DNA of 64,000 nucleotides, from assembly GCA_963677595.1 (NCBI GenBank), contig OY782041.1, positions 3,072,001 to 3,136,000 of the forward strand. The letters run 5' to 3'. The notes beneath the pieces are model-generated. The model made no database searches. It was not told where the DNA came from and saw only the letters and a program-made list of their open reading frames with translations. The translations under genes were made by a program, and so were the position numbers. Of this stretch, positions 22,365-62,010 are shown piece after piece (the stretch's first letter is position 1; each line of letters begins with the position of its first letter). The DNA is from Spirochaetia bacterium (lineage in GTDB: Bacteria; Spirochaetota; Spirochaetia; CAKZLE01).

Positions 22365-24125
22365 GTGACACAGATGCATAACAAAAAGTTAGTCGTAGTC
22401 CCGGTAGTGTTGATAGTCTTGATGATGCTGCTCTCCTGCAGCATGGGAGATCCGGTCGACCCGGTCGACCCAGTGCGGGCAGCATTGGAAGAAATGATAG
22501 CGAACGGAGAGGATGTCACCACATTCGACACATCAGCGATCACTGATATGTCGTACCTGTTTAACAACAAGAGCACCTTTAACCAGGACATCTCAGGCTG
22601 GGATGTCAGCAATGTCACCGACATGACTGGGATGTTCTTTGGGGCTTCCTCCTTCGATCAGGATATATCATCCTGGGATGTGGGCAATGTCACCGATATG
22701 ACCTATATGTTCTATAACGCAAGAGCCTTCAACCAGGACCTGACAGGCTGGGATGTAGGCAGTGTCACTACGATGAACAATATGTTCGGCTATGCGACCG
22801 CCTTCAATGGCGATATATCAGGATGGAATGTAAGCAGCGTGACCGATATGACTGCCATGTTCTATGGAGCTTCAGCCTTCAACGGGGATATATCATCCTG
22901 GGATGTGAGTAATGTCACTACGATGAGCAGTATGTTCGTCAATGCTGATAGCTTCAACCAGGACCTGCATACCTGGGATGTGAGCCATGTCACCGATATG
23001 AACGCCATGTTCTATTTGGCAGATACCTTCAACGGCGATATAACAGGCTGGGATGTCAGCAGTGTCGGGGACATGGGGTATATGTTCAGCAGTGCACCAG
23101 CCTTTGACCAGGATATATCATCCTGGGATGTAAGCAGTGTCACCAGCATGACTGCCATGTTTAAGCAGGCAACTGCCTTCAACCAGGGCTTACATACCTG
23201 GGATGTCGGCAGTGTCCAGACCATGGCAGGCATGTTCGAAGGGGCAGCTGCCTTCAATGGGAATATATCCACCTGGGATGTGGCACAGGTCACCGACATG
23301 AGCAGGATATTCTCTGGTGCTTCTGTGTTCAATGGCGATATCTCAGCCTGGGACGTCAGCCAGGTCACGAACATGACAACTATGTTCTGTAATGCAGCTG
23401 CCTTCAACCAGGACTTGAATGGCTGGAACGTAGGCAGTGTTACCAACATGAGTTCCATGTTCAGCGGTGCCGCTGTGTTCAACGGCAATATATCCAGCTG
23501 GAATACAGGCAGTGTAACTGCCATGAATACCATGTTCGATTCTGCTGTTGTATTCGACCAGGATATCTCAGGCTGGGATGTCAGTACGGTCACGAACATG
23601 AGTAGTATGTTCAAGGAAGCCAGAGCCTTCAACCAGGATATCTCAGATTGGAATGTCAGTAACGTCACGAACATAAGCGGCATGTTCAATGCGGCCACGT
23701 CCTTCAGCCAGGACCTGAATACCTGGGATGTGAGCCATGTCACCGACATGTCTTCCATGTTTGCAGGAGCATATGCCTTCAACGGGAACATCACCACCTG
23801 GGATATCAGCTGGGTCGGGAATATGAGCAAGATGTTCTCAGGAGCTACCACCTTCAACCAGGACATCTCAGTCTGGACTATTACCCGTGTCACGAATATG
23901 AGCGAGATGTTCCGGAATGCTACATCCTTCAACCAGGATGTATCAGTATGGCAGATCGGCAGTGTCAACGATGTGACCAGAATGTTCTCAGGTGCTACAT
24001 CCTTCAGCCAGGACCTCACCCCCTGGGCCGACTGTGTATTTGAGTATATCAGTCATTACGCCTTCGGTGAGAACAGTGGATTATCCACCGACCAATTCCC
24101 GTACTCAAGCTGGGCACAAACCTGA
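22365..24125 (+). CDS. BspA-family / DUF285 repeat surface lipoprotein
   Basis: Lipobox LLSC; about 20 tandem 25-aa repeats FNQDISxWDVSxVTxMxxMF; true start may be the ATG at 22374. Confidence 0.92.
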   Translation: MTQMHNKKLVVVPVVLIVLMMLLSCSMGDPVDPVDPVRAALEEMIANGEDVTTFDTSAITDMSYLFNNKSTFNQDISGWDVSNVTDMTGMFFGASSFDQDISSWDVGNVTDMTYMFYNARAFNQDLTGWDVGSVTTMNNMFGYATAFNGDISGWNVSSVTDMTAMFYGASAFNGDISSWDVSNVTTMSSMFVNADSFNQDLHTWDVSHVTDMNAMFYLADTFNGDITGWDVSSVGDMGYMFSSAPAFDQDISSWDVSSVTSMTAMFKQATAFNQGLHTWDVGSVQTMAGMFEGAAAFNGNISTWDVAQVTDMSRIFSGASVFNGDISAWDVSQVTNMTTMFCNAAAFNQDLNGWNVGSVTNMSSMFSGAAVFNGNISSWNTGSVTAMNTMFDSAVVFDQDISGWDVSTVTNMSSMFKEARAFNQDISDWNVSNVTNISGMFNAATSFSQDLNTWDVSHVTDMSSMFAGAYAFNGNITTWDISWVGNMSKMFSGATTFNQDISVWTITRVTNMSEMFRNATSFNQDVSVWQIGSVNDVTRMFSGATSFSQDLTPWADCVFEYISHYAFGENSGLSTDQFPYSSWAQT

Positions 24126-24261
24126 CCCATAAGTGACAGGATCCCAAGACAGTCCAGAGAGGCAGAAAGATACCCGCCCACCACACAAACCGAGAAGATG
24201 CATGCACCGCATCTCCTCGGCAGTAAAACCCTCACATAAGGGATAAGGGGATAACAGACGA

Positions 24262-24600
24262 TCCTCACCGGGTATCTCCTTAGATCCATGAAACTGCCCA
24301 AGCTCCCCATAACTATGAACATCATAACCGTCACGTTACAAAATAAGACCAATACACACAGAAGAGAGGTTGGGGAAGGGGGGAGAGCATAGTCTGCCGA
24401 CCCGGGAAGGCCACATCTGCAGATGTCGGGGGTTGACCACGGGGTGGTGGTGCGTCCAGAGCATAGCAGCTGGAAGTGAGGGGAAAGCTGGAAGGAAACC
24501 GGACCGCTGGAAGTGATGGGCCAGTAGTTCATTCAGGAAAGATTCAGACTTCATGCAGTGGCTTTCCCCCACTCCCTGGAACCGCATACCCGGAACGTGA
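24262..24600. repeat. Non-coding degenerate repeat, copy 2
   Basis: Colinear similarity to 21600-22220; three GCTGGAAG units at 24469, 24487 and 24506. Confidence 0.65.
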
Positions 24601-25034
24601 TAACCCACAGAAGGGTAAAAAGCTTTTCTAAAACCGTTGAAGCAATACGAATTAATGCTAGTGAGGTTGTGGAAAGGTGCTTATCCCAGGGCACCGAGCT
24701 TGGTTGAAATCGACATGCTTCATTTGGTATTAGGATTGGTATACCCACATTATATATGTCCCACTACCCGATGATGGTATGTTTGGAGTAAAGATTTACC
24801 TTATCACGCAGTTAATTTTTACAAAACAGTAAGATCTGTCAAAATCGAGGAAATTTTTTTATGATTTTTGAGATTATGCTTGTAATGTGGGAGATGATGC
24901 GTTATGGTTGATTATAGTACTTGTACAACTTCAGGATGAACTAGAAAAGAGATCAACTGCATATCACCTGCTGGATCAACAGTAGGGATTAAAGGCTGAT
25001 TTTCTAACATGAATGCACCAAAAAGGAGTTGCGT

Positions 25035-25753
25035 ATGAGTGCTATAGGTCTTATCGGTGGTCTGAACATGGACCACGACATTTGGTTCTACCAAAACCTG
25101 ATCCACACAATCGAAGAAATAAGTGAGAACAGCCCTGCTATCTACCTGTTCGGGGGTGAGAACGGTATCTTCAGCAGTGCCAGGCACAGGACAACTATGC
25201 AAGTCTCGAAGATCATTATTCGAAGACTGTGATAACGGCTTTTCATACAGGTGTCGATCGCCTGATCATCATCAATGATCTCATGCACAGTAAGCTCCAT
25301 AAGATTACCGTAGGTGTTGGCGTCCCTGTAATATCCTTGACAGATGCCATCCAGGCATTCGCCCGTAAGGAGCAGATAGAGAGGATGGCAGTACTCTGCC
25401 ATTACTCTCCTGATCTGTATTCCCATTACCAGGGTGTCAAGGGCTGCCATATGGAGCTTTGCAACAGGGAAGAGGCTGCAGAGCTGAACACCCAGTTCTC
25501 AGGTTCCCCGAACCTCTTTGACGAATCACATACCAGCGTACAAATCATGCATGATATTCTCAGTCGCTGCAGGCAGGATGGGGTGAAGCATGTCCTGCTC
25601 ACCAGCCCTGAACTCGTCTACCTGCTACCCGAAGATACTGATGATCTGGCTATATACTGCAGTGACGAGATTCATATGCAGTACGCTGCAGAAGCCTGCC
25701 TGGCCTGCATGCAGCAGGACGTAAACACCAGTCACAACGTAAGGGCGCAGTAA
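25035..25753 (+). pseudogene. Aspartate/glutamate racemase-like gene, frameshifted near 25157-25190 and lacking both catalytic Cys
   Basis: N-terminus MSAIGLIGGL (AAGGAG RBS) resembles the racemase IGLIGG motif; the other frame continues ...QDNYASLEDHYSKTVITAFHTGVDRLIIINDLMH...VPVISL...GVKHVLLTSPEL, matching the family layout. Confidence 0.6.
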
Positions 25754-25857
25754 ATAGAGGTTTGGGATAACATAGGATGGAAAAGAACAACAGGAACATG
25801 ATGCAACAAGTCCTCAATACCCAGACAGTGGTGGTGTGTAGCCTAAACGTAGTAACC

Positions 25858-27520
25858 AACCTCGTAGAGGTTGAGGTGGGGAAAATCCACCGCGAATAGA
25901 TTTCTTTTTTTGTCCCTCCGGGCCCGCCCGGCGTATGACTACAACAAAAATAACATAAGTTCTGCTTGTTGGGCGGGTCCGTTATTTACCAGAGGGATGA
26001 GAGAGAAGAAGAGAAGGATATCAGCGATATCAATAACGAACGATACCGCTGATAATAGACCAGGAGATACAGCCTTGTTAAGGTTGTCGTGGCTTAGTAA
26101 TAGGTCACATATAGTATCCTCCATGTGTTTTCAAGGGCCTGCCCTGGCTTAACATAATCCTGATAAGAGTACTTACAGGGCGGGTCCGGTTCTTTCCGGA
26201 GAATGAAAACAGGAGGTCGAAGGTATGCTGCCGGAGGTCAGGGTACTGAGTTCTTAAGGCAGCAGGGATCGTAGCGGAAACGCTATGCCTCTGTTGTGGG
26301 AGTTAGCGTGAATCAGCCTTTTCAAGGCTGTTGTGATTCTTTGTAGATCACACATAGTTTACTCCATTTTTTCCGGACCCGCCCTGATTTTACACATTCT
26401 GAAGTTAGGGTACGTACGGGGTGGGTCCGGTTTCTTTCTCTCGAATATGTGATGCTGAGGAGGTATGAGAACAGGCTCTCTGGCAGACAGGGCGATGAAT
26501 AAATGAGGGCATTGGCCTTTTGTCAGGTGAAGAAGAGCTGTTGATATACAGGTGGTTCTTGTCTACAGGGGACCATCGGAATGGATGCTACAGATGAATT
26601 GCAGTATCCATTCTTGAGTCCGTCCCACTTCCATTGAGACGAGCGCATGTTTTACCAATGGGACGGGCTCTTCTTTCTTCATGTAATTCGTGATGTAAGC
26701 ATGATGCAGCTGTAGGGCTGGGATGTGTCATGTGTAAGATGATCAGCCTGAAAACAGGAGAGTTCCCGTTACGATCTTATATGATCACATACGGGATAAG
26801 GAGTGTAAGGTACATATGCATGCATACAGCAGGGGAGGACGATATCCCCGGAATATGTGTCTGAAGAGGATGCCGGAGAAATTCAGTTACCACTGATGAG
26901 TATCCTGAATATTGGAGTCGACCTCGTTGAGGCCGAGGTGGGAGATACCCACCACGTATAGATTTCTTTTTTGTCCCTCCGGGTCCGCCCGGCGTATATC
27001 AGAAACCAAAAACAAACGTTCTGCTAGTTGGGTGGACCCGTTATTTACTGGAGGGAAGAGAAAGAAAAGAAGGGAAGGGATATCAGCAGTACCTGTTGAG
27101 GATACTGCTGATGCATGAACAGGAGCTTACAGCTTTGGTAAGGCTGTAGTGACTTGTAGGTCACACATAGTTACTCTCCATTTTTCGAGCCCGCCCGATA
27201 TTGATCAACCTGCATTCGTGATACTTGCAGGGCGGGCTCGTTTTCTTACCGGAGCATACACTATGAAGGCAGGAGAACAGGCTCTTTGGCAATCAGGGCG
27301 ATGAATAGAATGAGGGCATTGGCCTTTTTGCCAGGTGAGGGAAGAGTCATATGAATATATAAGGTGGTCCGGCGATACCATATCGTGGGACCATCGGGGG
27401 TAGATCCAGGCGGGTATCCTCCTATGATGAAGCCTGCGAAATATCCTTTTGGGCCCGTCCCGTCCCCCTATTGAGACTAGCATATGCTTAACCCTCGGGA
27501 CGGGCCCATCTTCTTTTTCT
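25858..27520 (+). repeat. Diverged internal duplication within the hairpin array
   Basis: 25858-26130 resembles 26921-27185, and 26467-26680 resembles 27274-27520 (e.g. ACCTCGT.GAGG..GAGGTGGG, TAGATTTCTTTTTT(T)GTCCCTCCGGG, GAGAACAGGCTCT.TGGCA, ATGAGGGCATTGGCCTTTT). Confidence 0.85.
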
Positions 27521-27620
27521 ACTGCATGCATACCATAGCTGCAGGGGTAGGGAGCAGATGGTAAAAACCTGCAGCATGGAAATGAGGAGTGATGAGGAAA
27601 GGCATAGATGGAGATAACAA

Positions 27621-27956
27621 ATGGTGAAGATAACCAGTGAACTTATGACATCTCTGTCAGGGTGCTCACGGGAAGAACTGAGCACCCTGGTAGAACAGGA
27701 CGGATATGATTACCTGAACTGCATGAAGGACTATATTCCCTCCTTCGAGCATATGAAGGAGAAGTTCTCCATCCTCGCATACCTGATCCTAGAAGACCGG
27801 ATGTATGCCTATAACCCGGATGTGCAGGAGCTGTACAGAAGACTGCTTGCGATCCAGGATGCGGCACAGGAGATCACCGATGCCCTGAAGGGCATTATCA
27901 CCCATGCCGACGTACTCACTGAAGCCCGGCTTCAGGAGCTGTCGGTGCATGAATAG
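27621..27956 (+). CDS. Hypothetical small acidic helical protein (paralog A)
   Basis: 111-aa ORF, GGAG RBS, followed by a 17-nt palindrome and an array hairpin. Confidence 0.7.
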   Translation: MVKITSELMTSLSGCSREELSTLVEQDGYDYLNCMKDYIPSFEHMKEKFSILAYLILEDRMYAYNPDVQELYRRLLAIQDAAQEITDALKGIITHADVLTEARLQELSVHE

Positions 27957-28198
27957 TTGAATACAGCCCTGTTAGGGCTGGGTAATACAATGTTTCCAAC
28001 CTTTGTTTCGGGCCTGCCCGAGAAAGCAAGTACCTGGAGTTATTGATCATCCGGGCAGGCTCGTTTCTTTAACAAGAGAGGAACGTGGAAACAATGAATG
28101 TAGAGTTGGTTAGATCGCAGGTGTCTGCGATCTAGAGGAACAGAGATGCCGTTGATACTCACACGATGCGTATCAGCGGATAGGGAAGAGTTGTGTGT

Positions 28199-28531
28199 AT
28201 GAAATTGGAATTGAGGACTGACTTTCAGTTACTGCAGGTAATGCAGTTGGAGGAACCCGAAAAGAATCTACAGGAAGAATTGGATCATGCAATGGAAGAT
28301 CTTAAAGATATGAGTGAGATCTATGACATGATGGTAGAGATGGTCACGAGTCTTGCGGTCCCGCAGAACGAAGAACAATCTTACGAATTCGATGAGGATA
28401 TGGATTATATATTCGAAAGCCTTGATGCCGTCTCACAGTTGACTTTGAAAGTCCGGTATGAGCTTGTAGACATCATACATGCAGCTTATAGGTTCAGTGC
28501 GTCTATGGCTAATAGAAATAGGTGCCAATAA
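28199..28531 (+). CDS. Hypothetical small acidic helical protein (paralog B)
   Basis: 110-aa ORF from MKLELR, very acidic, followed directly by an array hairpin. Confidence 0.65.
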   Translation: MKLELRTDFQLLQVMQLEEPEKNLQEELDHAMEDLKDMSEIYDMMVEMVTSLAVPQNEEQSYEFDEDMDYIFESLDAVSQLTLKVRYELVDIIHAAYRFSASMANRNRCQ

Positions 28532-28929
28532 ATATATGTGTAGTAACGGGTTCACCCGATCGTATGCCCGATTCTAAGAAAGTACAAGTATGTTGTTCAT
28601 ATCGGGTGAACCCGTTCTTCTTCTTGTGAAGGAATGGAAGGTAAAGGCTGAAGATATTATTTTTATGAATGAATGGAGGTGTATGTATAGAAGAACTGAA
28701 TCCTGTCGATGGATGGACCTGGGAACATATAGTCGGTCTGTCATTATGGAGAGGAATCACTTAGGGCCCGTTTCCGTCTAAACCTATTAAAAGTTGTACA
28801 AGGACACATAATGGGGACGGGCCTGTTTTTTAAGATTGCCTGGTCCTCTGTACCCTTGCTGCCGATACGGATCAACAGCGGTACATGGAGAGAGCAAATA
28901 GAGAAGAATATTAGTAGGAGTTAGGAAAT

Positions 28930-29250
28930 ATGAAGATCGATGCATTGATGTTGGCAAAATTACGTATTGAGCAAGCGAACGCTGTCGGTGGGAAGGTTAG
29001 TATCAAGGCAGGAAATACCCTTCAAAGTATGATATTTCTCCTGCCGCGCTGCGGCCGGGTAAATCAGTACGTAGGAGTACTCTCGGATTTGGTGTTCTCG
29101 AACCCTGAATTCGAGTGTGATACAGAAGCCCTGCAGCAGGAGCTGAATAAGAGCTTTGATGTTCTGCAGGTCGCAACCGATATGATGGATAATGCGCTGA
29201 CGAAGATTGAGACCCTGGCTGAACGTTATTTCGATCCTGAGCTGTTATAA
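28930..29250 (+). CDS. Hypothetical small helical protein (paralog C)
   Basis: 106-aa ORF, AGGAG RBS, followed by an array hairpin. Confidence 0.7.
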   Translation: MKIDALMLAKLRIEQANAVGGKVSIKAGNTLQSMIFLLPRCGRVNQYVGVLSDLVFSNPEFECDTEALQQELNKSFDVLQVATDMMDNALTKIETLAERYFDPELL

Positions 29251-30806
29251 ACGATACCTCTATGAGGTTATCGTGTCCCTTCGGGTTTATCCGGTGAGAA
29301 CACCGTAGGACAGTCCGGTATGGAATCCGGATGAACCCGTTCTTTAGCGAACTACCAGCTTTGTTAAAGCTGAAGGAAACAAAAGAAGGAGAAAGGAGGT
29401 TCGAGCTGCTTTTAACCCTTCCCGGCAGATAGATCGAAGCTGTATATGAATCAGTCATCCTGCCGGGAGAGCGGATCCGATATATTCTATATAAGATGGC
29501 CCCTAACACCAAAATCGGGCCATCGGGAACAGATCAGGGATCGGGTATCTCCTTCCTCGACTCCTGGTCACTTTCTCCGGGCTCGTCCCACCCACCTTTA
29601 GTAAGTCTACCTTGCACACACCATATCCGGGACGAGCCCGTTCTTATTTTTTCATATTCCAGCCTTGTCAAGGCTGTTGATCATAACGTCTATGTGTAAG
29701 AAGGAGGGCATTGACTCACCCGGTAGGAAATATAAAACACAACATAAATGCAAAAATAAAATCCAAAGCATGACAATCGAAACGGGTGAGTTCCTACTGT
29801 TCCTGATGATCACCATATGCTGTATCAACACTGCTGATATCATCAGGAGCGCTACCTTTGTTCAAGAGGTTGAGAGACCTCTTGGAACAACATGATTGTT
29901 CTATGCTTGGGCCCGCCCCTGTTACCCCCCCCCATTCAAGGTAACGAATTTCCTTTCACGCTGGGGCGGGCCCTTCTTCTTCCCTGTGAACAATGATCTT
30001 TGTCCGAAACCAGATTGCACACTGATTGCCTGCATTGGTGTTCCTGATTGTTGCGGTATGATGCCCATGATTGCTGCCCTATACCGGCAGATCCTTATCT
30101 CGGTGTACTATAACAATACAGGGTGTAAGGTTTTTCTCAAAAATAAATAAATGATAAATTAAAACACAGTGAATGCTTATATGAAAGATAGCATACTACA
30201 TAATTCGTGAGTAATGGGTTGATAAGTGACCAAAATTCCTGTACTATGCTTGCAAGATATTCAAGAAAGTGGTGTGGGACTAAAAGTATTGAATGCTCGC
30301 TCATATCGTGTATCTTGGTATCGCGTTTAAGGGCTGCTGTGATAGTTGGTGTATGTTGCAGCGATTAGACTGATATAAGGGTGGGGGTGTGCAGTCGGGC
30401 GTTTCTTCGAAGTGTAACTTTAAGCTCGTTCATGAGTTTAACTTTATAAGGCTAGGGGAGAATCCATGCTTGGTGTGATGCATAACATAGTCAGGTATAA
30501 TACTGGTGGCTTGTATATAGTAGGGAACGTGTTACAAAACTCAAGTAGAGAAGTGCCAGGTACTTCTGTTCTTGTGTAGCCACGTCATAGCCGCAGATAT
30601 CATACCCGATCCTTATCCGGCAACAGTTTAACTAGAACCCCCTTGAATGAAACACGAGATGTGTGTCGAGTAAGTTTCGGCGACCGGCATGCATAGTAGT
30701 GCCTCAACAAGTGGAGCAGTTGCCTGGTTTTTCATCAAAAATGGGGTTCTGCACTAGCGAAGCTTTGCGGTAATATGGGGTCTGCTGCTCTCGCTTAAGT
30801 AGTATG

Positions 30807-30815
30807 TGCTATAAT
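30807..30815 (+). promoter_or_regulatory. Extended -10 promoter element for the polysaccharide locus
   Basis: TGcTATAAT about 60 nt upstream of the first gene. Confidence 0.5.
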
Positions 30816-30875
30816 GTAGCAACACGGCTGCGAAGCGAGAATGAGTAATGCAACAAAAAGTGTAAAGGGTTAAGT

Positions 30876-32723
30876 ATGAAATTCAAGCTGAGAAGATTGC
30901 GTAAGTACCTGCTTCTTGTCCTTGCTGATATCATCCTGCTGCTTGCATCCTGGGAGCTGGCCTACTATATTCGCGACCAGCATCTCTGGAACATACACTC
31001 CGGAGCCCCGGCTCTCTGGGCAGTCCTTGTCTGTGTTGCCGTACAGATCGCGGCTTTCTCCTTCACTAAGTTATATAGAATATCCTTACGGCAGGTTTCC
31101 CTGGAACTCATCTACCAGGCGGGTATCCCACTGGTTATCGGGGCATTCTGCTCGTTAGTACTTATGACCACCAAGTCCGGTGACGGGTTCAATGCCCTCC
31201 AGCTGCTTATCCCGTACTGGGCCTTCAGTATCCTTACCATTATCGCCTACCGGGTCATCTTCCGGATCACCGGCGGTTATACCTTCCTTGATACCAACCA
31301 CATACATTGTCCAAGAACTCTTCTCTACGGCGCAGGCGAGGTTGCTGACCAGCTCATGCGTCTCTACCGCAAGGACATGCTCGAGTACAAGATCATGGGC
31401 CTCATCGATGATGACCGTAACAAGCATCACATGATGTTCCACGGCAAGGAAGTCTTCGGTGGTATCGAGGAACTCGCTGAGGCCATCATCAGGCATGACA
31501 TCAAGATGATCATCATCGCCTCGATCAAGATCGGCAAGGACAAGATCAACGAGATCGTCGACATCGCGCACCAGCACGATGTCGAGGTGAAGATCGTCCC
31601 TTCGCTCTTCGAGATCACTGAGGACAAGCGTTCGGTAGCTGACATTCGGGACGTCAATATCGACGATCTTCTCGGACGTGACCAGGTAGAGGTCGACAAG
31701 GCCCCGATCATCGAGATGATCGAGGGTAAGACGGTGATGATCACAGGTGCCGGCGGCTCGATCGGCTCGGAGCTTGCCAAGCAGGCTACCGGGTTCAACC
31801 CCGAAAAGCTCATCATCCTTGATATCGACGAGACCGAGATCCATAACCTGTCATTGTCCTTGAACAACTATTCCACGGGCTTCAGCAATGATATCATTCC
31901 GGTCGTTTGTGATGTCCGGGACAAAGATAAACTCGATTCCATTATAGAGAAGTATAAACCGCAGATCATCTACCATGCTGCAGCCTACAAGCATGTTCCC
32001 CTCATGGAGTACTTCCCCGAGGAAGCCATGAGGACCAACATCGTTGGTTCTTACAACCTCTTCACCTCAGCAGTGAAGTACGGGGTGGAGAAGTGTATCC
32101 TCATTTCCACGGACAAGGCAGTCAACCCGACCAATGTCATGGGAGCCACCAAGAGGATGGCAGAGCTCTTAGCCTCTGCACTCTCCACCAAGAAGACGGA
32201 GATGGTAGCCGTACGGTTCGGTAATGTCCTCGGTTCCCGTGGTTCCATGCTCCCGCTCTTCCAGGAGCAGATCAGACGTGGCTTGCCGATCACCGTAACC
32301 CATAAGGATATCATCAGGTATTTCATGACGATCCCCGAGGCAGTCTCTCTGGTATTCTTAGCCGGTGCAGTAGCACGGGGAAGGGAAGTCATGGTCCTTG
32401 ATATGGGCAAACCAGTCAGGATCTACGACTTCGCACAGAAGCTGGTGAAACGGTACGGCAACAACAAGTCCACGGTTATCGTGACGGGCCTCCGCCCCGG
32501 AGAGAAGCTCTATGAAGAACTGCTCACCAGCGAGGACACCTCGATGCCTACTGAATACCCGAAGGTCTTCAAGGCGAAAGTCTCCAACGGACATGACATC
32601 AAGTTCCTTGAGAAGTTCATCACGAACATTCAGGAGAACAAGAGTAATGCGGAACTGATACAGACCCTCTGCACTTATGTTCCCTGTTATGATGCGAAGA
32701 CCAAGAAGAGAAAAGAAGCATAA
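30876..32723 (+). CDS. Membrane-bound nucleoside-diphosphate sugar 4,6-dehydratase (PglF/CapD/WbpM family)
   Basis: N-terminal TMs, YGAGE, DLLGR, ITGAGGSIGSEL, HAAAYKHVP, STDKAVNPTNVMGATKR, RFGNVLGSRGS, GLRPGEKLYEEL. Confidence 0.95.
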   Translation: MKFKLRRLRKYLLLVLADIILLLASWELAYYIRDQHLWNIHSGAPALWAVLVCVAVQIAAFSFTKLYRISLRQVSLELIYQAGIPLVIGAFCSLVLMTTKSGDGFNALQLLIPYWAFSILTIIAYRVIFRITGGYTFLDTNHIHCPRTLLYGAGEVADQLMRLYRKDMLEYKIMGLIDDDRNKHHMMFHGKEVFGGIEELAEAIIRHDIKMIIIASIKIGKDKINEIVDIAHQHDVEVKIVPSLFEITEDKRSVADIRDVNIDDLLGRDQVEVDKAPIIEMIEGKTVMITGAGGSIGSELAKQATGFNPEKLIILDIDETEIHNLSLSLNNYSTGFSNDIIPVVCDVRDKDKLDSIIEKYKPQIIYHAAAYKHVPLMEYFPEEAMRTNIVGSYNLFTSAVKYGVEKCILISTDKAVNPTNVMGATKRMAELLASALSTKKTEMVAVRFGNVLGSRGSMLPLFQEQIRRGLPITVTHKDIIRYFMTIPEAVSLVFLAGAVARGREVMVLDMGKPVRIYDFAQKLVKRYGNNKSTVIVTGLRPGEKLYEELLTSEDTSMPTEYPKVFKAKVSNGHDIKFLEKFITNIQENKSNAELIQTLCTYVPCYDAKTKKRKEA

Positions 32724-36139: not shown

Positions 36140-36700
36140 CTTGGAAAACCACCGCCTATGGCGGTGGTCATGGAATGAAGGCTACGCCGTAAGAAAAGTG
36201 TGATATGATAAGGCATGTCCAAGTGGAAGAAACAGTCGCATGTAGTATATCAGTGTAGTTACCATATCGTATGGTGTCCAAAGTACCGGTTTCGGGTACT
36301 GAAAGATGCTATAGGGAGTTATGTAGAACACCGGATACGAGAACTATGTGAATGGAAACAGATAGAGATATTGGAACTGAACGTGATGGAAGATCACGTA
36401 CATATGGTGGTAATCGTACCACCAAAACTATCGTTATCAGAAATGATGGGCATGCTGAAAGGGAAAACAGCAATCAGCTTGTTTAAGAGTTTTCCAAAGT
36501 TTAAAGAGAAGCCGTATTGGGGAAACCACTTCTGGAGTCGCGGGTATTGCGTTACGACGCTCGGGTTAGATGAAGATAAGATACGGCGATATGTAAAGTA
36601 TCAAGAAGAGAATGAGCGACTCGAAGAAGCTCAGCAGGAAGAATTCGGCCTCTTTTAGAGGCCTAATACAAGCCACCTCCTCTGGGGGTGGTTGTTGACT
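36140..36700 (+). mobile_element. IS200/IS605 family element (tnpA only); ends approximate
   Basis: Subterminal hairpins ACCACCGCC-TAT-GGCGGTGGT (36148-36168) and AGCCACCTCC-TCT-GGGGGTGGTT (36671-36693) flank tnpA. Confidence 0.85.
36215..36658 (+). CDS. tnpA: IS200/IS605 Y1 HUH transposase
   Basis: YHIVWCPKYR, DHVH, FWSRGY, catalytic Y in RRYVKYQ. Confidence 0.95.
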   Translation: MSKWKKQSHVVYQCSYHIVWCPKYRFRVLKDAIGSYVEHRIRELCEWKQIEILELNVMEDHVHMVVIVPPKLSLSEMMGMLKGKTAISLFKSFPKFKEKPYWGNHFWSRGYCVTTLGLDEDKIRRYVKYQEENERLEEAQQEEFGLF

Positions 36701-37030
36701 CATTTAATTTCGGTCATGCTTGACCGACATATTTTAGTAGCGATACTTTCTAAGGGAAATGATTTGTGCTGCATAATATTCTTAAATATTTATTGAATTT
36801 TTTCTTAGAATGCAATGGATCTAGAAAATATATCAAGCATTATAATTAAGGTTATCTTTTTGTACTTGGATTTTGCAATATTGGGTCTGGAGAGTAAATC
36901 TGGCTGCTTGCAGGCATTAGCAATTACGTGCGGTTTATCATATATTTTTTTTCATGTAGATGAGCGGATTAGAAAAGTTATTGGTTGCTAAAATGCGAGG
37001 TTTAATAGATATTCGAAATATTATAAATAA

Positions 37031-38334
37031 CACTGCTGTCCGGTTAAGAATTCAGATAGATCTTGCAACTAGTTTTAATATAAAGAAATAGGAGGTGTTT
37101 TTACTTTTTTCGATATATAGCGATTTATAATGCATGTATTCAATCCTATGGGTTACCATCTGGAGGCGTGCATGGATATTTTCCCAGATAATGGACTTTG
37201 TACCGACCTATGAATTCAAGAAATGTGTAAAACGCTACAAAGGAGATTATCGGATACGGAACTTTACTTACTGGAACCAATTTCTTTGTTTGGCATTTGC
37301 TCAGCTGATCTATCGGGAAAGTCTTCGGGATATCGAATCCTGTTTGAATTCAATTCCTCAGAAACTCTATCATATGGGATTTCGGGGAAACATCACCCGC
37401 AGCACCCTGGCAGATGCGAATGAAAAAGAGACTGGCGAATCTATGCCGATTTTGCTCAGATCCTTATCAGCAAGGCCAGATCTCTTTACCGGAATGATGA
37501 ATTTGGCCTTGAGCTGGATAATACGGTATATGCCCTTGATTCAACGACAATAGATTTATGCTTATCGTTGTTTCTCTGGGCTAAGAACCCATAAAGGGGC
37601 AGTTAAGATGCATACGTTATTGGATTTGAGAGGAAACATACCGACATATATCGCTATTACTCCGGGAAATGTACATGATGTAAACATTCTGGATCAATTG
37701 ATTTCTGAACCAGGAGCCTTCTATATTATGGATCGAGGGTATGTGGATTTTAGTCGTTTATATCAACTGACCCTAGATCAGGTGTATTTTGTTGCTCGGG
37801 GCAAAAGCAATCTGAAATTCAGAAGGTTGTATTCGAACCCGGTAGATAAAGCAACTGGGTTACGAAGTGACCAAACCATAAAGCTTGAAGGATCCTACGC
37901 CCGACAGGAGTACCCCGACAAGCTGCGAAGGGTACGTTATTTTGATCAGGAAACAGGGAAATACTATACGTTCCTGACCAACAATTTTACCGTGAGTTCA
38001 ATCATGGTAACCGAACTGTATCGATCGAGATGGCAAATTGAGCTGTTTTTCAAATGGATAAAGTAGCATTTACGAATCAAGGCATTTTACGGCACGTCGT
38101 TCAATGTCGTGAAGACACAGATATGGATTGATATTTCGGTGTATGTAATGGTAGCAATAATTAATAAGGAGCTGAATTTAGGGATGAGTCTCTACAGTAT
38201 TTTACAGATTTTGAGCATCACGCCATTTGAACAATTATCTATAAAAGAAGTACTTAGCGATTCAGATTACAAGAATTTAGGCCCCGGTGATAATAAACAG
38301 TTACTGTTAATAGATTTATAACCGGACACTAGTG
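37031..38334 (+). mobile_element. IS4 family element with degraded transposase
   Basis: Terminal IRs CACTGCTGTCCGGTTA and TAACCGGACACTAGTG; near-identical flanks TATAAATAA and AATAAATAA. Confidence 0.85.
37134..38321 (+). pseudogene. IS4 family transposase pseudogene (DUF4372 + DDE)
   Basis: Fragments FAQL..RESLRDIE, RSTLADANE, K.HTLLDL, MDRGY, Y..RWQIELFFKWIK*HLRIK; a frameshift and in-frame stops. Confidence 0.9.
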
Positions 38335-46335: not shown

Positions 46336-48262
46336 CATGAATTTTAATTAATTTTGTACTAGAAATAGCACAAATCGTTCCTGGTTAACAACATAAACCT
46401 TTACAAGCCTCCTTTTAAATAGTACAATTAGCTATTAATAGGAGGGATGCAAACATGGCCAGACCGCCCAGGAACGATGACAAGATCTACCTTAACCTCC
46501 ATATCAATCAAGGGTACCGATACGCTCGTGCTCAGGTTCCGTACAAAACTGAATCAGGGGTGAAGCGGTACAAATCTGTCCATTTTGGTACAGTCACCGA
46601 TGAGCTTGTATTCAACCCGAATCACAAGTTTCTCTATGCATCTGAAGAGGTACGGAAGGCCCTCGTGTTTCCTCCTGAGTGGAATGTGAGTGCCGCCTTC
46701 AAGGAGATTCACCCTCCGCCGGGGAGACCGGAATCATCAGATGAGGATACGAACCGTCTGTATGGCCATATCTGGCTTCTCGAGAAGATTGCAGAATCTA
46801 CCGGAATCCGCAAGGACCTCCTGCAGGTCTTCCATGGCAACAAGGCCCTGGTGAACGATATCCTTACCCTTGCCATGTTTCCCTATGTTACCGGGTACAC
46901 CTATAACCGAGTTGAACGCTGGCAGCGGATTGTAAAAGCTCCGTCAGACAGACCGCTGAACCCGCCAGCCATTACGCATCTGACGCAGAGCATCACCGAG
47001 CAGCATCGCATGGATCTGTTGCGACTACGGTTGAACCGGCTCGAAAAGGGGGAAGTCTGCGCTGTTGATTCCACGTCCCGGACTGCGTATGGCAGCGCTC
47101 TTGCAGACATCCGCTGGGGCAAGAACAAGGAAGGGCTGAAACTTCCCCAGACCAATGAAGTAGTAGTCTACTCGCTCAGCAGCCATGTACCGGTATACTA
47201 CCGGACATTCCCGGGGAACATGATTGACAGCAGATCCCTGCGGACCATCTTCAAGGATCTTGATGATGCGGGATTCCCGGACACCATCTTGGTGACCGAC
47301 CGTGGATATGAAAAGATAGAGACGCTTGAGGCCTATATCCTGAAAGGGAAGGCCATGATCATGTGCACCAAGGTTCAGCAAACCTTGGTGAAGAACGTGA
47401 TCAAGTCGCTTGCTCCATTTACTGATAGACCCGAAGAGATGTCATATGACCGGGAATCCGGCATCTATTATCTGCAGCAGCGAGTTGACTATGCGGTACA
47501 GAGTGTCCAGAAGGACAAGATAACGCATGCGAAGAACCTCTGTGTAAACCTCTATTTTGATCCCATGCGGAGAACGCTGGAACTGAAGAAGCTTGCCGAT
47601 GATCTTTATGATATGCAGGAGGAGTTGGATGAACTCATCGGGAAAGATGCTCCCTACACTGCTGCTGAGATAAAGAAACAGTTCAAATACTATAGCGTGA
47701 GCTATGATTCAGAGGCGAACCGTATTACTGGATACACGCGAGATGCCAAGAAGATCAGTAAAGCCAAAGAGTTGTCAGGCTTCTTCTCCATTACCAGTCA
47801 CAATCTGACTATGGGCGGCATGGAAGTGCTTGAGACCTACAATCTTCGTGATGAGCAGGAGAAGTACTTCCAGCAGATGAAGAGTCAGATGGTCAGTGAC
47901 CGACAGCGAAACTGGTCGGAAGAAGGAAAGACAGGAAGGCTCTTCATCCTGTATGTCTCGCTGGTGTTGGCCTCTCAGGTACGGTATACGTGGAAACAAT
48001 CGTTGACAAAGCAATTCTCTACATCACTTGAAATGCTTGATGAGATGAAGCCGATTCGGTGTATTGAGCATGCAGGAACAGCGAAACATATAACAGCCTT
48101 TGTAGGCAAACAGCGTGAGATCTGCAATGCGTTTGGCTTTGAGATCCCGCCGGGTTGTGATGTCGGGTATGAGATCAGGAAAGTTGAGCCAAAGAAGAAG
48201 AGAGGTCGACCACGGAAGCCGCGTGTCGAGAATTAATAGTACAAAATATATCAAAATTCATG
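46336..48262 (+). mobile_element. IS1634-like insertion sequence, apparently intact
   Basis: 26-bp imperfect IRs CATGAATTTTAATTAATTTTGTACTA and TAGTACAAAATATATCAAAATTCATG; 7-bp direct repeat ATATTAT on both flanks. Confidence 0.85.
46455..48236 (+). CDS. IS1634-like DDE transposase
   Basis: AVDSTS, WGKNK, PGNM.D, TDRGY, Y..RDEQEK.F..MKS; GC content higher than the surrounding locus. Confidence 0.88.
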   Translation: MARPPRNDDKIYLNLHINQGYRYARAQVPYKTESGVKRYKSVHFGTVTDELVFNPNHKFLYASEEVRKALVFPPEWNVSAAFKEIHPPPGRPESSDEDTNRLYGHIWLLEKIAESTGIRKDLLQVFHGNKALVNDILTLAMFPYVTGYTYNRVERWQRIVKAPSDRPLNPPAITHLTQSITEQHRMDLLRLRLNRLEKGEVCAVDSTSRTAYGSALADIRWGKNKEGLKLPQTNEVVVYSLSSHVPVYYRTFPGNMIDSRSLRTIFKDLDDAGFPDTILVTDRGYEKIETLEAYILKGKAMIMCTKVQQTLVKNVIKSLAPFTDRPEEMSYDRESGIYYLQQRVDYAVQSVQKDKITHAKNLCVNLYFDPMRRTLELKKLADDLYDMQEELDELIGKDAPYTAAEIKKQFKYYSVSYDSEANRITGYTRDAKKISKAKELSGFFSITSHNLTMGGMEVLETYNLRDEQEKYFQQMKSQMVSDRQRNWSEEGKTGRLFILYVSLVLASQVRYTWKQSLTKQFSTSLEMLDEMKPIRCIEHAGTAKHITAFVGKQREICNAFGFEIPPGCDVGYEIRKVEPKKKRGRPRKPRVEN

Positions 48263-48456
48263 ATATTATAGAAAGAATGAAATATACAAAAACTGGAAAT
48301 GAATAATTCAATATAATAATATAATTGAAAAAAAGATATTAAAGAGACAGAAAAGAACGTAAAAAAAATAAATTCAACATGTTTGCTTTTAAAGTTATTA
48401 GCAATGCAACTATATATGAGATAGAAGTATTAATATTACATATTAAATATATTAGA

Positions 48457-50035
48457 GAGCCAATTTCAAAATAGGGCTCAACGCCATACAAATGTATAAA
48501 TATGCATAAGAAGTACTTCGAGAGGTTCGTATATGTGCTTGATATAAGGAGAGAGACGCTTGCACTCTGCTTGATGACCCAGTGATGAGTATATGAAAAA
48601 GGATTCCTTTCTGTTATAGTTTAATTACGACAAAAAAACAAAAACAAAAAAAGGAATCCTGTATGGCTTATACTATCCCAAGTACGTTCGGACTTCAATC
48701 CCTTCTCTTCACATCTGAGGACCTATCATCCTGTTTGTTCCGAAAACCCACAGCACGGGAGCGGGAATTCCTGCAGTTCCTGCAGGCAGTTCAGGGATTG
48801 TTAACACCAGAAGAGCAGCAGGCTCTCAGCAGAAATCACACACGAGGCAGGCTCGGATATGAACTGAAGAGTATCCTTGGCATACAGCTGCTGAAACTCG
48901 TTTATCGACAACCGACGATGAAAGAGACTCTCCTGCTGCTGCAGGAGAATGGTAATCTCAAAGACATGCTTGCTCTTGATGCCATTCCCAGTCAAGCTAC
49001 GGTCAGTCGGCTCTCGAGTCAGGTGATGGCGATCGTCTCACCTACAGCACTCCATGAGCGTGTGATCTCTGAGTATGTGCAAGCGACCGATAGAGTCATC
49101 GGACATCTATGCATAGACAGCACGACGATCGAGGCACGTGAGAAGCCGATACACCGGACCAGAAAGACAGAAGAGAGAAAGAAACCAGCTAAGAAGCCGG
49201 GGAGAAAGAAGAACGGATCTCCTGAACAGCAGGAATATCTTAAACGGAAGGCTCAGGAAGAACAGGAGCGGATTGCCTATCTGCACGAATCCTGGGAGCA
49301 TACCGTCTCAAAGCTGGAGATGCGCTGTTCTCTGACAGCGAAGCAGAACTCAAAAGGGAAGAGACAATGGTTCATCGGGTACAAGGCTCATCTTGCCACT
49401 GATGACTTCGGAGTCCCGATGAGCTATGTAGTGACCGGGGCATCGGTCCATGATAGCAAGGTTGCAGTCCCCTTGATGAAGATGACCCGGGAACGCTCTG
49501 ACTTCTTCTATATTCTGCTCGACAAGGGCTACATCAGTCCCCTCATCAATGACTATGCGGATCATATCGAACGGAAGGTGATCATCGACAGGAAGGCCTA
49601 TCAGGGAGTAGCCCCGATCCCGCTGGAACCAGCGGCTGCTGCACGGTATACGGCCCGGACTACGGTCGAGCGGACCAACAGCGAACTCAAGGACGGGTTC
49701 TTGCCGGACAAGATCTACAAGCAGGCTGCCAGGGCACGGTATGAAATAGCATTGGCCATTCTTCTCACCACCATGAAGAAAGTGAGGAATGTGCTGAAGC
49801 TCTACGACGAGAAGAGCTTCGATTCAGCTGCGTAAAGCCAAAGCTGCAGCATTCTACACAAGCCCACCAGCATAGGATGGGCGCTTCAGTGTGCATAAAC
49901 TACCATGAACGGATGTCTCATCTCCAGATTTCAGCACAGACTCTGGCCGAATGCTGGGTCTCCAGCAGGTTCTGTATGTTTATGCAGCTCTTTGTGCATA
50001 TTTATACGGGGAGATCTGCTTTTTGAAATCGGCTC
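48457..50035 (+). mobile_element. IS5/IS1182-like insertion sequence
   Basis: IRs GAGCCAATTTCAAAA and TTTTGAAATCGGCTC; 4-bp TAGA duplication on both flanks; subterminal inverted GTATAAATATGCA. Confidence 0.85.
48663..49835 (+). CDS. DDE transposase (IS5/IS1182-like)
   Basis: PSQATVSR, IDSTTI, GYKAHL, ASVHDS, LDKGY, Y..RTTVERTN..LK. Confidence 0.88.
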   Translation: MAYTIPSTFGLQSLLFTSEDLSSCLFRKPTAREREFLQFLQAVQGLLTPEEQQALSRNHTRGRLGYELKSILGIQLLKLVYRQPTMKETLLLLQENGNLKDMLALDAIPSQATVSRLSSQVMAIVSPTALHERVISEYVQATDRVIGHLCIDSTTIEAREKPIHRTRKTEERKKPAKKPGRKKNGSPEQQEYLKRKAQEEQERIAYLHESWEHTVSKLEMRCSLTAKQNSKGKRQWFIGYKAHLATDDFGVPMSYVVTGASVHDSKVAVPLMKMTRERSDFFYILLDKGYISPLINDYADHIERKVIIDRKAYQGVAPIPLEPAAAARYTARTTVERTNSELKDGFLPDKIYKQAARARYEIALAILLTTMKKVRNVLKLYDEKSFDSAA

Positions 50036-57701: not shown

Positions 57702-60497
57702 GTGGATCAATGGAATATCTTGGGGAGTCGATGGTGGAAGTTCGATTTTCATACGCATACTCCTAAGTCCGATGATTATGGAAGAGGCAATGGGTCCTTG
57801 AAGGGAATCTCTCCTGAGACATGGCTCCAAAATGCTATGGAATCAGGACTAGACTGTGTTGTTATCAGTGACCATAACTCGGGAGACTGGATTGATGAAT
57901 TGAAAAGCGCGAATAGTACATTGCATGATTCTGATAAGAAACCCGAATGGTACAGGGATCTCACAATTTTCCCGGGTGTCGAGATCACTATAGCCGATAG
58001 CAGTCGTCGAGTTCATCTTCTGGCTGTCTTCGATCCTGCCTGCGATAGGAATAAGGTGTCAGGGGTTCTGGGGGCCTGTGGAATCACATCGAGGTTTGGT
58101 GATGATAAGAGTATAGCCACAACCACAAGTTTTGGCGATACTATCAAGATAATAATTCAAGAAGGAGGTTTGCCCATCCCTGCTCATATCGATGGGAAAA
58201 AGGGACTGCTTGAAGGAATATCTACACTCTCACCTGAAACGAAGAATAGCATTGATGCTGTTTCGGCAGCGGAATTCTGCAATCTCAATGCATACGATAA
58301 AGCTGATGCCTCTTTGCGAAAGAAAGTAGACAAACTCGCAAAATTGGCAGGTTCCGATGCCCATACTCCCGATGAGATAGGGCGCTACTTCAGTTGGGTT
58401 AAGATGAGTTCTCCTACCCTTGAGGGGTTGAGACTGGCGCTTCAGGATTACGAGTTCTGCGTTTACAATGGGTCAGAATCTCCTGAGCAACTCCCCGGTA
58501 CATACCTGATGAGTCTCATGATCAGGAATATGAAATATTGTGGACGAGTTTCTGGTAAACCCTTCCATATCTCATTTCATCCTCATTTCAATGCTCTTAT
58601 TGGCGGCCGAGGCACTGGGAAATCCACCATAATTGAATCTATACGGATAGCTTCACGGCAAGACCGTAACCTTGCTGTAGAATCCCCTAGGATCAAAGAT
58701 GAACTGGATAAGTTCATGAAGACATCACATAAAGAAGGGGTCATGCTGAATGACACTGAAATAATCTTGGAAATCCATCGTCGTGGAAAGAAGTATCGAC
58801 TCTTCTGGAGATTCACCGGACAAGGTAATGTGCTTGAAGAGGAGATCTCGGGCTTGTGGAAGACAGTAGACCCCGGCGATATTGTTGAACGATTCCCGCT
58901 CAGTATCTTTAGTCAGAAACAGATCAATGAGCTGGCGTCGAATTCGCGTGGACTCTTGGAGATAATCGACCGTTCTCAGAGGGTTAATCGATCCGAATGG
59001 GATGCCAAGTGGGAACAGGAGAAAAGCCGGTTCCTTCAACTGAGTGAGAGAAAGAGGGAATTGTCACGACAGCTGGCTGGAGAGAAAAATCTACGTATAA
59101 GACTTAAGGACGTCGAACATGATCTGAAGCAATATGAGGTTCATGGGCATGGTGAGATACTCAAGAAGTATCAGAAGTATAGTCAGCAGAAGAACTCATT
59201 GCCCGACGATCACATATTCAATTATCTTTCGTCAGGTATCCGGGACCTCGCTTCTGCTGCAGAATTCTCAGATTTCCCAACCCATCTTTTTGATGAGAAC
59301 GATGAGGCAACCGAGGAAATCCGATTGATTCACGAACAAGCATCCAAGGCACTGCAGAGCATCAGTACTGCACTGGGTAACCTTGCGGAAGATGTTGATG
59401 TTCTTAAAGCGAAAAGAGCCGAGAATATGTCTTCAAGTAGATGGTATCATGCAGGGCAGGATAGTATCAGTGCGTATGAAAGCCTTGTGAGGGAATATGA
59501 AGAGAAAAACAGTCGCATAAGTCTTTCTCTGTATGGGGAATGGGTCCAACAGCGTAATCAACTGCAGCAGCAGTTGAACCGGCTGGACTCTGTCCGTGAG
59601 GATGATACATCAACAGGGATTCAGATTGAGGAATCTTTGACAAGACTACAGAGCCTTCGTGGTGAACTGCTCGAAAGGAGGAGAAACTTTCTTAACGAGG
59701 TTATAGGAAGTAATCCATACGTGCGCATGGAACTGATTCAGTATGGAGATTTGAGCTCTTTAGAAGAGGAATACCGAGACCTCCTCTATCTTGAATCCGG
59801 GAAATTTGAGAGTTCGGTGTTTGACAGAGATAACCAACAGGGATTACTCTGGCCATTGAAGAACTGGGAGGACCTTGGGAAACCCGATACATCTCTCCCC
59901 CAGCTTATTTCCGAAATCAAGATCACTACCCTTAATATCGCCAACAGGGTCAGTACTGCAAACCATGGAGCCTTTGCCAATCGCCTGGAAAAGGTGCTTG
60001 AGACACAACCAGCAGTTTTTGATCAGCTTAAAGCTTGGTGGCCTGAGGATCTTCTCAGGGTCAGGTATTCAAAGGATACCTCTTCGGGAAAGTTCGAAGA
60101 TTTGGAGAAAGGTTCTGCCGGGCAGAAAGCAGCGGCAATTCTGGCATTTCTTCTCAGTTATGGTGATGAGCCGTTGATTATAGATCAACCAGAAGATGAC
60201 CTTGATAACGCATTGATCTATGACCTGATAGTTTCGCAGATTAAAGAAAACAAGAAAAGGCGGCAGCTAGTCATCGTAACCCATAACCCGAACATCGTTG
60301 TGAACGGAGATTCTGAACTGGTACATGTCTTGAAATATGATAGAGGCCAGGTGCAGATTGACTTGCAGGGTGGGCTGGAAGAAACTGGTGTCAGAGAGTC
60401 CATATGCAACATTATGGAGGGCGGACAAGAAGCCTTCGATAAGCGTTATGCACGAATAAGAACTGAGAGGTACAATGATGTTCGAAACAACAGCTGA
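57702..60497 (+). CDS. PHP phosphoesterase + ABC/SMC-like ATPase fusion (Ppl/TrlF-like, probable anti-phage protein)
   Basis: PHP motifs DFHTHT, SDHN, GVEI, PAHID, GSDAH; Walker A GGRGTGKST; coiled coil; SAGQK, IIDQPEDDLD, VTHN. Confidence 0.88.
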   Translation: MDQWNILGSRWWKFDFHTHTPKSDDYGRGNGSLKGISPETWLQNAMESGLDCVVISDHNSGDWIDELKSANSTLHDSDKKPEWYRDLTIFPGVEITIADSSRRVHLLAVFDPACDRNKVSGVLGACGITSRFGDDKSIATTTSFGDTIKIIIQEGGLPIPAHIDGKKGLLEGISTLSPETKNSIDAVSAAEFCNLNAYDKADASLRKKVDKLAKLAGSDAHTPDEIGRYFSWVKMSSPTLEGLRLALQDYEFCVYNGSESPEQLPGTYLMSLMIRNMKYCGRVSGKPFHISFHPHFNALIGGRGTGKSTIIESIRIASRQDRNLAVESPRIKDELDKFMKTSHKEGVMLNDTEIILEIHRRGKKYRLFWRFTGQGNVLEEEISGLWKTVDPGDIVERFPLSIFSQKQINELASNSRGLLEIIDRSQRVNRSEWDAKWEQEKSRFLQLSERKRELSRQLAGEKNLRIRLKDVEHDLKQYEVHGHGEILKKYQKYSQQKNSLPDDHIFNYLSSGIRDLASAAEFSDFPTHLFDENDEATEEIRLIHEQASKALQSISTALGNLAEDVDVLKAKRAENMSSSRWYHAGQDSISAYESLVREYEEKNSRISLSLYGEWVQQRNQLQQQLNRLDSVREDDTSTGIQIEESLTRLQSLRGELLERRRNFLNEVIGSNPYVRMELIQYGDLSSLEEEYRDLLYLESGKFESSVFDRDNQQGLLWPLKNWEDLGKPDTSLPQLISEIKITTLNIANRVSTANHGAFANRLEKVLETQPAVFDQLKAWWPEDLLRVRYSKDTSSGKFEDLEKGSAGQKAAAILAFLLSYGDEPLIIDQPEDDLDNALIYDLIVSQIKENKKRRQLVIVTHNPNIVVNGDSELVHVLKYDRGQVQIDLQGGLEETGVRESICNIMEGGQEAFDKRYARIRTERYNDVRNNS

Positions 60498-61740: not shown

Positions 61741-62010
61741 CACAGAGGGGGCTACGTCCCTCGTTCGTTCTGAAGGTATAATATCAATATGGTTGCCCAT
61801 AAAAAACCAGCTGGATACCGAATATAGTGGGAGTGAACGTCTTCTTGGGAACTGCCGTCAATAAGACGGGGGACCTGCAGGAAGGTGAGGGATGCCTGGT
61901 GAACGAATTGTTTAGGGATCCCGGTGGAATCGGCCTCCTGACAGGAGACCGGCTTCACAGGGAATACTTCATGCTGAACTACATCAGACCTCTCCTCATT
62001 CCTTTCGAAT

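Follow-up and report, generated by a model that had tools for sequence, protein, structure and literature searches.

Organization of the locus

The array described here covers about 4 kb (approximately 25858-29990) of the window, by which we mean the whole 64,000-nucleotide stretch analysed (contig OY782041.1, positions 3,072,001 to 3,136,000), and belongs to a Spirochaetia bacterium whose genome is a single contig of 4.33 Mb. To its left lie a gene for a DUF285 repeat protein and a racemase-like gene that is split, and to its right a polysaccharide synthesis locus that starts at 30876. Within it, 13 co-oriented hairpins with a conserved stem, a long loop and a U-rich tail (H1 to H13) close modules, many of which fall into families (alpha, beta and gamma), and three small open reading frames (ORFs A, B and C) lie among them. 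We conclude that this is a real, undescribed and species-restricted array of structured RNAs and mini-genes; a full-text literature search, supplements not covered, returned no description of the element. Its features, all on the plus strand, are listed below with stem lengths in base pairs (bp) and loop lengths in nucleotides (nt).

25919..25981, +, H1, long-loop hairpin with U tail: 15 bp, loop 33; closes gamma module 25849-25988
26070..26086, +, P hairpin, first of six copies: 7 bp, 3-nt loop; the other copies start at 26314, 27130, 27964, 29356 and 29660
26089..26108, +, R hairpin: follows P in alpha modules; covaries among the H2, H3 and H6 modules
26135..26187, +, H2: 12 bp, loop 29; closes alpha module 26062-26196
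26373..26430, +, H3: 14 bp, loop 30; closes alpha module 26306-26437
26616..26670, +, H4: 12 bp, loop 31; closes beta module 26455-26678
26980..27040, +, H5, duplicate of H1: 14 bp, loop 33; closes gamma module 26911-27047
27186..27240, +, H6: 11 bp, loop 33; closes alpha module 27122-27248
27450..27508, +, H7, duplicate of H4: 13 bp, loop 33; closes beta module 27262-27516
27621..27956, +, ORF A: 111 amino acids, acidic, predicted helical hairpin, orphan
28009..28063, +, H8: 12 bp, loop 31; 52 nt past ORF A, in alpha-type 3' module 27956-28071
28199..28531, +, ORF B: 110 amino acids, very acidic, orphan; segment replaced in one strain
28545..28616, +, H9: 16 bp, loop 40; 13 nt past ORF B
28764..28824, +, H10: 14 bp, loop 33
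28930..29250, +, ORF C: 106 amino acids, orphan; segment diverged or replaced in another sample
29282..29339, +, H11: 13 bp, loop 32; 31 nt past ORF C
29419..29469, +, looser hairpin, long loop, no U tail: lies inside the third beta module (29390-29648)
29578..29640, +, H12: 12 bp, loop 39; closes the third beta module
29713..29792, +, looser hairpin: 10 bp, loop 60, A-rich
29909..29973, +, H13: 11 bp, loop 43

The long-loop hairpins

An independent stem scan recovered all 13 hairpins at the starts given in a preliminary description of this sequence, together with the two looser hairpins reported there, and each of the 13 has a stem of 11-16 bp, a loop of 29-43 nt and a U-rich tail. A hairpin filter applied to 25858-29990 retained these 13 and none in each of 200 dinucleotide shuffles; over the whole genome it retained 28 sites, 13 of them in the array and seven of the other 15 inside genes. 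The hairpins are irregularly spaced (206-559 nt), have stem-loop energies of -20 to -28 kcal/mol and stem probabilities of 0.97-1.00 in context, and five to seven of the nine nucleotides after each core are U.

Compensatory changes in the stems, also reported before, were confirmed in our alignment, in which 94.7% of cells are paired and 10 of 13 pairs changed on both sides; percent paired and covariation score exceed those of all 500 shuffles, and slid partners pair in 25-54%, although the 13 copies are mutually related and the covariation counts therefore overstate independence. Among the 130 pairs of the 10-bp cores, 119 are Watson-Crick, 11 are G-U and none is mismatched, in agreement with the claim that every non-Watson-Crick pair is G-U on the plus strand, and the 11 G-U against zero A-C pairs support the selection on a plus-strand, single-stranded structure that had been proposed. 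All core changes are transitions through G-U, so that conservation of the arm could be explained by slow compensatory evolution, without sequence-specific binding. A search of window positions 24000-31000 with 4227 Rfam covariance models gave a single match (E = 4.1), and thus no family, and the arm is shared by 0 of 189 post-gene hairpins of the genome, as expected if it is not the genome's generic terminator sequence.

Module families and folded spacers

The spacers between the hairpins are paralogous (alignment z 5-29) and folded, a feature that the preliminary description missed. The alpha family comprises the spacers before H2, H3 and H6 plus the stretch between ORF A and H8, the beta family those before H4, H7 and H12, and the gamma family those before H1 and H5; the block pairs H1-H2/H5-H6 and H3-H4/H6-H7 are about 73% identical. 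Nine of the 15 non-coding segments fold better than their shuffles (z -2.9 to -5.1), and P (six copies), R (three modules) and other helices keep pairing between copies. Because a model built from the four alpha modules also finds the untrained H1 and H5 modules over their full length (42 and 37 bits), the order hairpin, hairpin, pyrimidine linker, long-loop hairpin and U tail appears to be a shared plan.

Ten of the 13 modules have neither an ORF nor a remnant of A, B or C. One non-coding spacer can be aligned with the end of ORF A (z 5.4). In the paralogous modules, the small ORFs of both strands do not keep their frame between copies. Antiterminator helices in the array do not exceed chance (mean z -0.2), near-identical short repeats are absent from it, and matches of the pyrimidine linkers to translation-start regions range from p = 0.04 to 0.96. 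The array holds eight promoter-like sites against 11.5 in shuffles, and a conserved promoter per module was not found. A sigma-70-like site (9/12) is present in the H9 loop (28571-28599, minus strand), directed antisense into ORF B, with no equivalent in the other 12 loops.

The small open reading frames

ORFs A, B and C encode acidic proteins, are each preceded by a purine run resembling a ribosome-binding site, and align end to end at about 20% identity. The earlier claim that they are paralogous held in part: shuffle tests were positive for A-B (p = 0.004) and A-C (p = 0.01), whereas B-C gave p = 0.08, default BLASTP gave no match and hhalign probabilities stayed below 5%. As far as these alignments go, paralogy is probable but weak. 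Among the strain differences listed (40 of 311), 11 of the 16 in ORF A are synonymous (p = 0.006) and, judged on these, ORF A is under purifying selection. Its predicted structure is a plain helical hairpin (predicted local distance difference test, pLDDT, 65) with no structural match at E 0.001; that of ORF C (pLDDT 55) is too poor for structural search, and a search of the Atlas gave only scores below 0.9 for C and nothing for A.

The only homolog found for ORF A is an 85% identical variant from a second strain, and none was found for B or C. A profile of the three had no match in 400 genomes of the class and 400 of the phylum (overlapping samples), nor in metagenome or viral contigs, and no family of Pfam, NCBIfam, PHROGs or PADLOC scored above cut-off; no homolog was found outside the species in the collections searched. 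In the relative G001, the syntenic place before the polysaccharide locus holds a lone acidic orphan ORF of 93 amino acids (L003:15200-15481), whose similarity to A, B and C is undetectable.

The loops and their possible targets

The loops are rich in A and T and show no structure of their own (mean z 0.0). None measures less than 29 nt, and the distance between the cores is 33-34 nt in all four alpha modules. They had been described as mostly unrelated except for the pairs 1/5 and 4/7; these two pairs stand, but loops 2/3 also align (z of about 4), and 1/9 and 8/9 do so weakly (z of about 3). Identity within the loop pairs 1/5, 4/7 and 2/3 is 0.64-0.66 against 0.70-0.75 in their flanks, and the pair 3/6 is at chance (0.48) while its flank reaches 0.77. 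The loops diverge along with their flanks and are inherited with the modules rather than acquired as spacers.

No motif shared among the loops and no pseudoknot between loop and flank was found, and pairing of loops with the rest of the array gave nothing significant (one of 13 loops at p = 0.05). The loops had no significant match in the source genome (best E 0.18 among the matches listed), nor in phages or plasmids; a 42-nt cyanobacterial plasmid match over H11 (E = 0.03) was treated as chance. Against 3557 crudely called translation-start regions, the best matches were at chance level for 12 of the 13 loops. Loop 11 (29295-29326) can form a contiguous 16-bp duplex of -32.6 kcal/mol with the leader (site 3716515-3716540) of the gene at 3715939-3716506 of the source genome, whose product, judged from a motif, resembles RNase HII. 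Seven of 1000 shuffles gave a duplex as good (p = 0.007; with correction for the 13 tests, about 0.09), and equal scores were reached at two further genomic sites, so this is a borderline lead and not evidence. The proposal that the loops are variable guides or antisense sequences was therefore left unsupported by their divergence with the flanks and by the chance-level targets.

Distribution and strain variation

A DNA search of 40 relatives returned one 110-nt match, to the polysaccharide leader, and none to the array, and the syntenic stretches of G001 and G005 lack long-loop hairpins. A covariance model of the hairpin (R1) found none in five other genomes of the order (0/5) and, in 150 genomes of the class, one weak site in each of four with no cluster; a second model (R2) likewise gave one weak site in four of 150. 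In the source genome R1 found only its 13 training sites (150 of 326 candidates scored). Scans with a pattern that catches four of the 13 array hairpins gave three viral, at least 119 genome and at least 119 metagenome stretches; with R1, no locus among 163 of the 241 pattern loci had more than two distinct sites (best 30 bits), and a scan of all 241 gave at most two per locus among those listed. A similar cluster was thus not found in the relatives and collections searched. Many unrelated bacteria have single long-loop hairpins that share the GGGCYYGYCC type of arm and carry a U tail; some of these form inverted doublets.

The array was seen in other strains at about 90-97% identity, in four runs from at most three samples and two studies; X1 is perhaps the sample from which the window came. 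In three runs from other strains, one G-U pair of H8 reads G-C (28061), and its 31-nt loop carries four substitutions and two indels among the listed differences. In one X1 contig (depth 30), positions 28091 and 28593 are linked by a stretch of about 507 unlike letters (length inferred) that takes the place of ORF B and most of H9. In an X3 contig, joints run from 28622 to 29089 and from 29136 to 29276, so that H10 and the greater part of ORF C are replaced. The replaced segments border hairpins in Logan contigs, with joints read provisionally at 80% likeness and sides of 34-51 letters, and they look like divergent alleles because the replacements are about as long as the segments skipped.

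Genomic surroundings

The gene to the left of the array (25035-25753), resembling aspartate/glutamate racemases, consists of two ORFs with a stop/start overlap at about 25229-25232, where an X1 contig matches the window. The DUF285 repeat protein gene (22365-24125) shows many joints and loose ends in other contigs, which suggests repeat shuffling or paralogs. To the right, the regions 36215-38066, 46455-49835 and 57702-63609 hold IS200 and DDE transposases, within the low-GC polysaccharide locus, and beyond that locus SMC-like, Schlafen/AlbA_2 and pRiA4b ORF-3-like genes, a possible defence cluster.

A UUCG-loop hairpin in the leader of the polysaccharide operon (window 30665-30690) is conserved in the source genome and in the relatives G001 and G005 (L003:16240-16265 and L271:10372-10397). 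The source genome also encodes a stand-alone LoaP above the NCBIfam cut-off (L284:6293-6811), 540 kb from the array, and LoaP is described as requiring a UNCG-type hairpin (PMC12691694); the leader hairpin is a candidate LoaP loading site acting in trans. As this best UNCG-type hairpin sits in the polysaccharide leader and is present in relatives without the array, LoaP is not tied to the array itself. At 430890-432560 the genome carries a clustered regularly interspaced short palindromic repeat (CRISPR) array, presumably type I-E-like, with 28 repeats and 27 spacers of 32 nt (61-nt period, one duplicated spacer pair). Its spacers do not target the hairpin array, and the six to nine letters that the 5' arms of H9 and H11 share with its repeat are probably a chance likeness.

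Interpretation of the array

In our preferred interpretation, to which we assign a probability of about 0.5, the locus is a tandem array in which structured sibling RNAs and mini-genes are set apart by hairpins that act in termination or processing, and in which recombination has reshuffled the units. Each of the 13 co-oriented modules, ten non-coding and three with an orphan gene of about 110 codons, is closed by the conserved GC stem with its long open loop and U tail; this hairpin probably sets an RNA 3' end, either through intrinsic termination that is leaky or because the transcript is processed and protected there. One or few upstream promoters would give a long transcript, from which partial read-through or cleavage at each hairpin would release a set of related, stable RNAs, each about 200-370 nt long, along with three small mRNAs, and the array would grow by duplication and exchange segments by homologous recombination between related modules. 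Leakiness or processing is required because the modules lack a conserved promoter of their own. We read the hairpin as a 3'-end element because its stem and tail are terminator-like, because H8, H9 and H11 start 52, 13 and 31 nt past stop codons, and because a solitary look-alike with an H-like arm, a 29-nt loop and a U tail follows an ordinary gene by 72 nt elsewhere in the genome (926768-926820, minus strand), although at 20 bits it scores no better than unrelated matches. The genome's post-gene hairpins share the style, with long GC stems and C-interrupted U tails, and 15 of 189 have loops of at least 25 nt. Of the three functions offered in the preliminary description, processing or termination sites fit best. 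As the array sits between a variable surface-protein gene and a polysaccharide locus, a role in host-phage or cell-surface conflict may be guessed.

Several observations weigh against this interpretation. Standard terminator definitions allow loops of 3-13 nt, and TransTermHP limits them to 13. Reported terminator loops have a median of 4 nt (PMC12207403) or typically measure 3-5 nt (PMC10325885), and those of the array, at 29-43 nt, lie far beyond. Thirteen efficient terminators in series without promoter excess would silence the distal ORFs; an arm conserved as in none of 189 ordinary terminators points to possible specific recognition; six of the 15 non-coding segments fold at chance level, and short perfect hairpins number 21 in the array against a mean of 22.6 per window of the GC-richer genome. 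Hfq was not found in the source genome, and no RNA run holding the locus was listed, hence no transcript or 3' end was seen. Recombination at the hairpins is not proven by the contig joints, since conserved hairpins are natural alignment anchors.

A possible but unlikely alternative is that the hairpins are punctuation only, that is, terminators and recombination anchors of small-gene cassettes comparable to the PeSLs of phages, with the ORF-less modules as leaders or relics without RNA function. The three weakly paralogous orphan ORFs that each end in a hairpin, the alignment of the end of ORF A with a non-coding spacer and the segments replaced near hairpins between strains are what it would predict, and such behaviour is described for PeSLs (PMC2839356). 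However, ten of 13 modules have no ORF or remnant, the helices of ORF-less modules keep pairing at about 73% identity, and the shared sigma-70 promoter that defines PeSLs is absent. It is rather doubtful that the hairpin itself is the product, namely a 55-75-nt RNA cut out between U-rich flanks, with the GC clamp protecting both ends and the open loop of about 30-40 nt serving as antisense guide or decoy. The loops are open, at least 29 nt long and constant in the alpha modules, change faster than their flanks and, in the strains, faster than the stem (H8), and loop 11 pairs with a gene leader; but that pairing is borderline after correction, the other 12 loops find start regions only at chance level, there is no significant match in genome, array, phages or plasmids, the loops are inherited with their modules and share no motif, and no candidate effector has a known RNA-binding fold. 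Similarly tentative is a battery of small RNAs, in which the island transcript would be cut into clamp RNAs whose loops or CU-rich linkers act as fast-evolving guides or decoys together with small helical partners exchanged among strains, loop 11 silencing the presumed RNase HII gene; if the loops are recognition surfaces, this would be an undescribed RNA-based conflict system.

We regard as improbable that excess RNAs bind and neutralise A, B and C, following type III toxin-antitoxin logic, or that read-through of the array requires a loaded antiterminator, for example LoaP. Each ORF does follow RNA modules and a terminator-like hairpin, in the order described for type III systems (PMC8167048), and the genome does encode LoaP; nevertheless, A, B and C are acidic and match no family, A being a plain helical hairpin without significant structural match, the array shows neither near-identical short repeats nor an antiterminator helix above chance, and the UUCG-type hairpin belongs to the polysaccharide leader, also in two relatives without the array. 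That the hairpins serve recombination or transposition as single-stranded DNA, in the manner of attC or REPIN elements, is largely refuted and in our view barely credible. Folded DNA would tolerate G-T pairs, the arms are loosely self-palindromic, and similar arms occur singly in many bacteria, but the nearest of six tyrosine recombinases is about 680 kb away. attC sites have AAC/GTT end boxes and extrahelical bases, whereas the cores have no extrahelical bases and such ends occur in H9 only; moreover, the arms are not an abundant dispersed repeat and the U tail is one-sided. This proposal of the preliminary description thus found no support.

If the preferred interpretation is true, the array would be a tandem family of structured RNAs that is unusually large, with ten units, and that arose and diversified inside a single species; it would be a case for how new small RNA (sRNA) families arise by duplication. 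Its terminator-like element, with a 30-40-nt loop outside standard definitions, would be a clean test case for termination. The organism is apparently uncultured and no other occurrence of the array was found, so that testing and reach are both limited.

Comparison with known systems

The array is not a CRISPR, attC or repetitive extragenic palindrome (REP) element, as had been judged before: its spacing of 206-559 nt and inherited loops differ from regular repeats with acquired spacers, and REPs and REPINs are abundant dispersed palindromes, whereas the top 16-mers of this genome belong to the CRISPR repeat and the hairpin arms reach at most about twice their Markov expectation. Sponge RNAs such as CsrB and RsmZ combine many GGA motifs with the CsrA protein; here GGA occurs 83 times against 81 expected, and CsrA was not found in the source genome. 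C4 antisense RNA and other Rfam families gave no covariance-model match. Type I toxin-antitoxin systems have a conserved short hydrophobic ORF and an antisense RNA, whereas the small ORFs of paralogous modules lose their frame. Type III systems (PMC8167048) share the order of upstream RNA, terminator and small protein gene, but their near-identical 36-nt repeats and ToxN-like nuclease have no counterpart here, no endonuclease toxin being matched. The stem-loops for selective RNA processing and stabilisation described in the cip-cel operon (PMC10311766) are likewise GC-rich, internal and possible cleavage signals stabilising both ends; unlike ours, they stand between large enzyme genes and do not form a single repeat family.

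Closer parallels are found among terminators. In E. coli, the RrA/B/F RNAs are reported to be made between successive terminators (PMC8144298), and terminators in hairpin clusters are known (PMC8355165). The array has in common with them the GC stem with U tail, the clustering of hairpins and the possibility of RNAs made by read-through, and differs in its 13 hairpins in series, loops of 29-43 nt, family-specific arm, modules of 200-560 nt and in that neither Hfq nor CsrA was found. Tandem sibling sRNAs such as csRNA, PrrF, OmrA/B and AbcR (PMC4211561) resemble it as paralogous, structured, non-coding units that carry a pyrimidine-rich linker and end in a terminator-like hairpin, whereas the units of the array number ten, belong to three or more diverged families and alternate with ORFs, and neither a promoter for each unit nor a conserved seed or target was seen. 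In the PeSL cassettes of T4-type phages (PMC2839356), GC stem-loops recur among the ORFans of a hypervariable region, and segments are replaced between strains; our array is chromosomal, its modules are mostly ORF-less, circles are not shown, and its element lacks the sigma-70 promoter (best site 9/12, one loop, minus strand), so that it was not assigned to the PeSLs. By analogy, the array would work most like a terminator-punctuated cluster of sibling sRNAs combined with a cassette turnover of the PeSL type.

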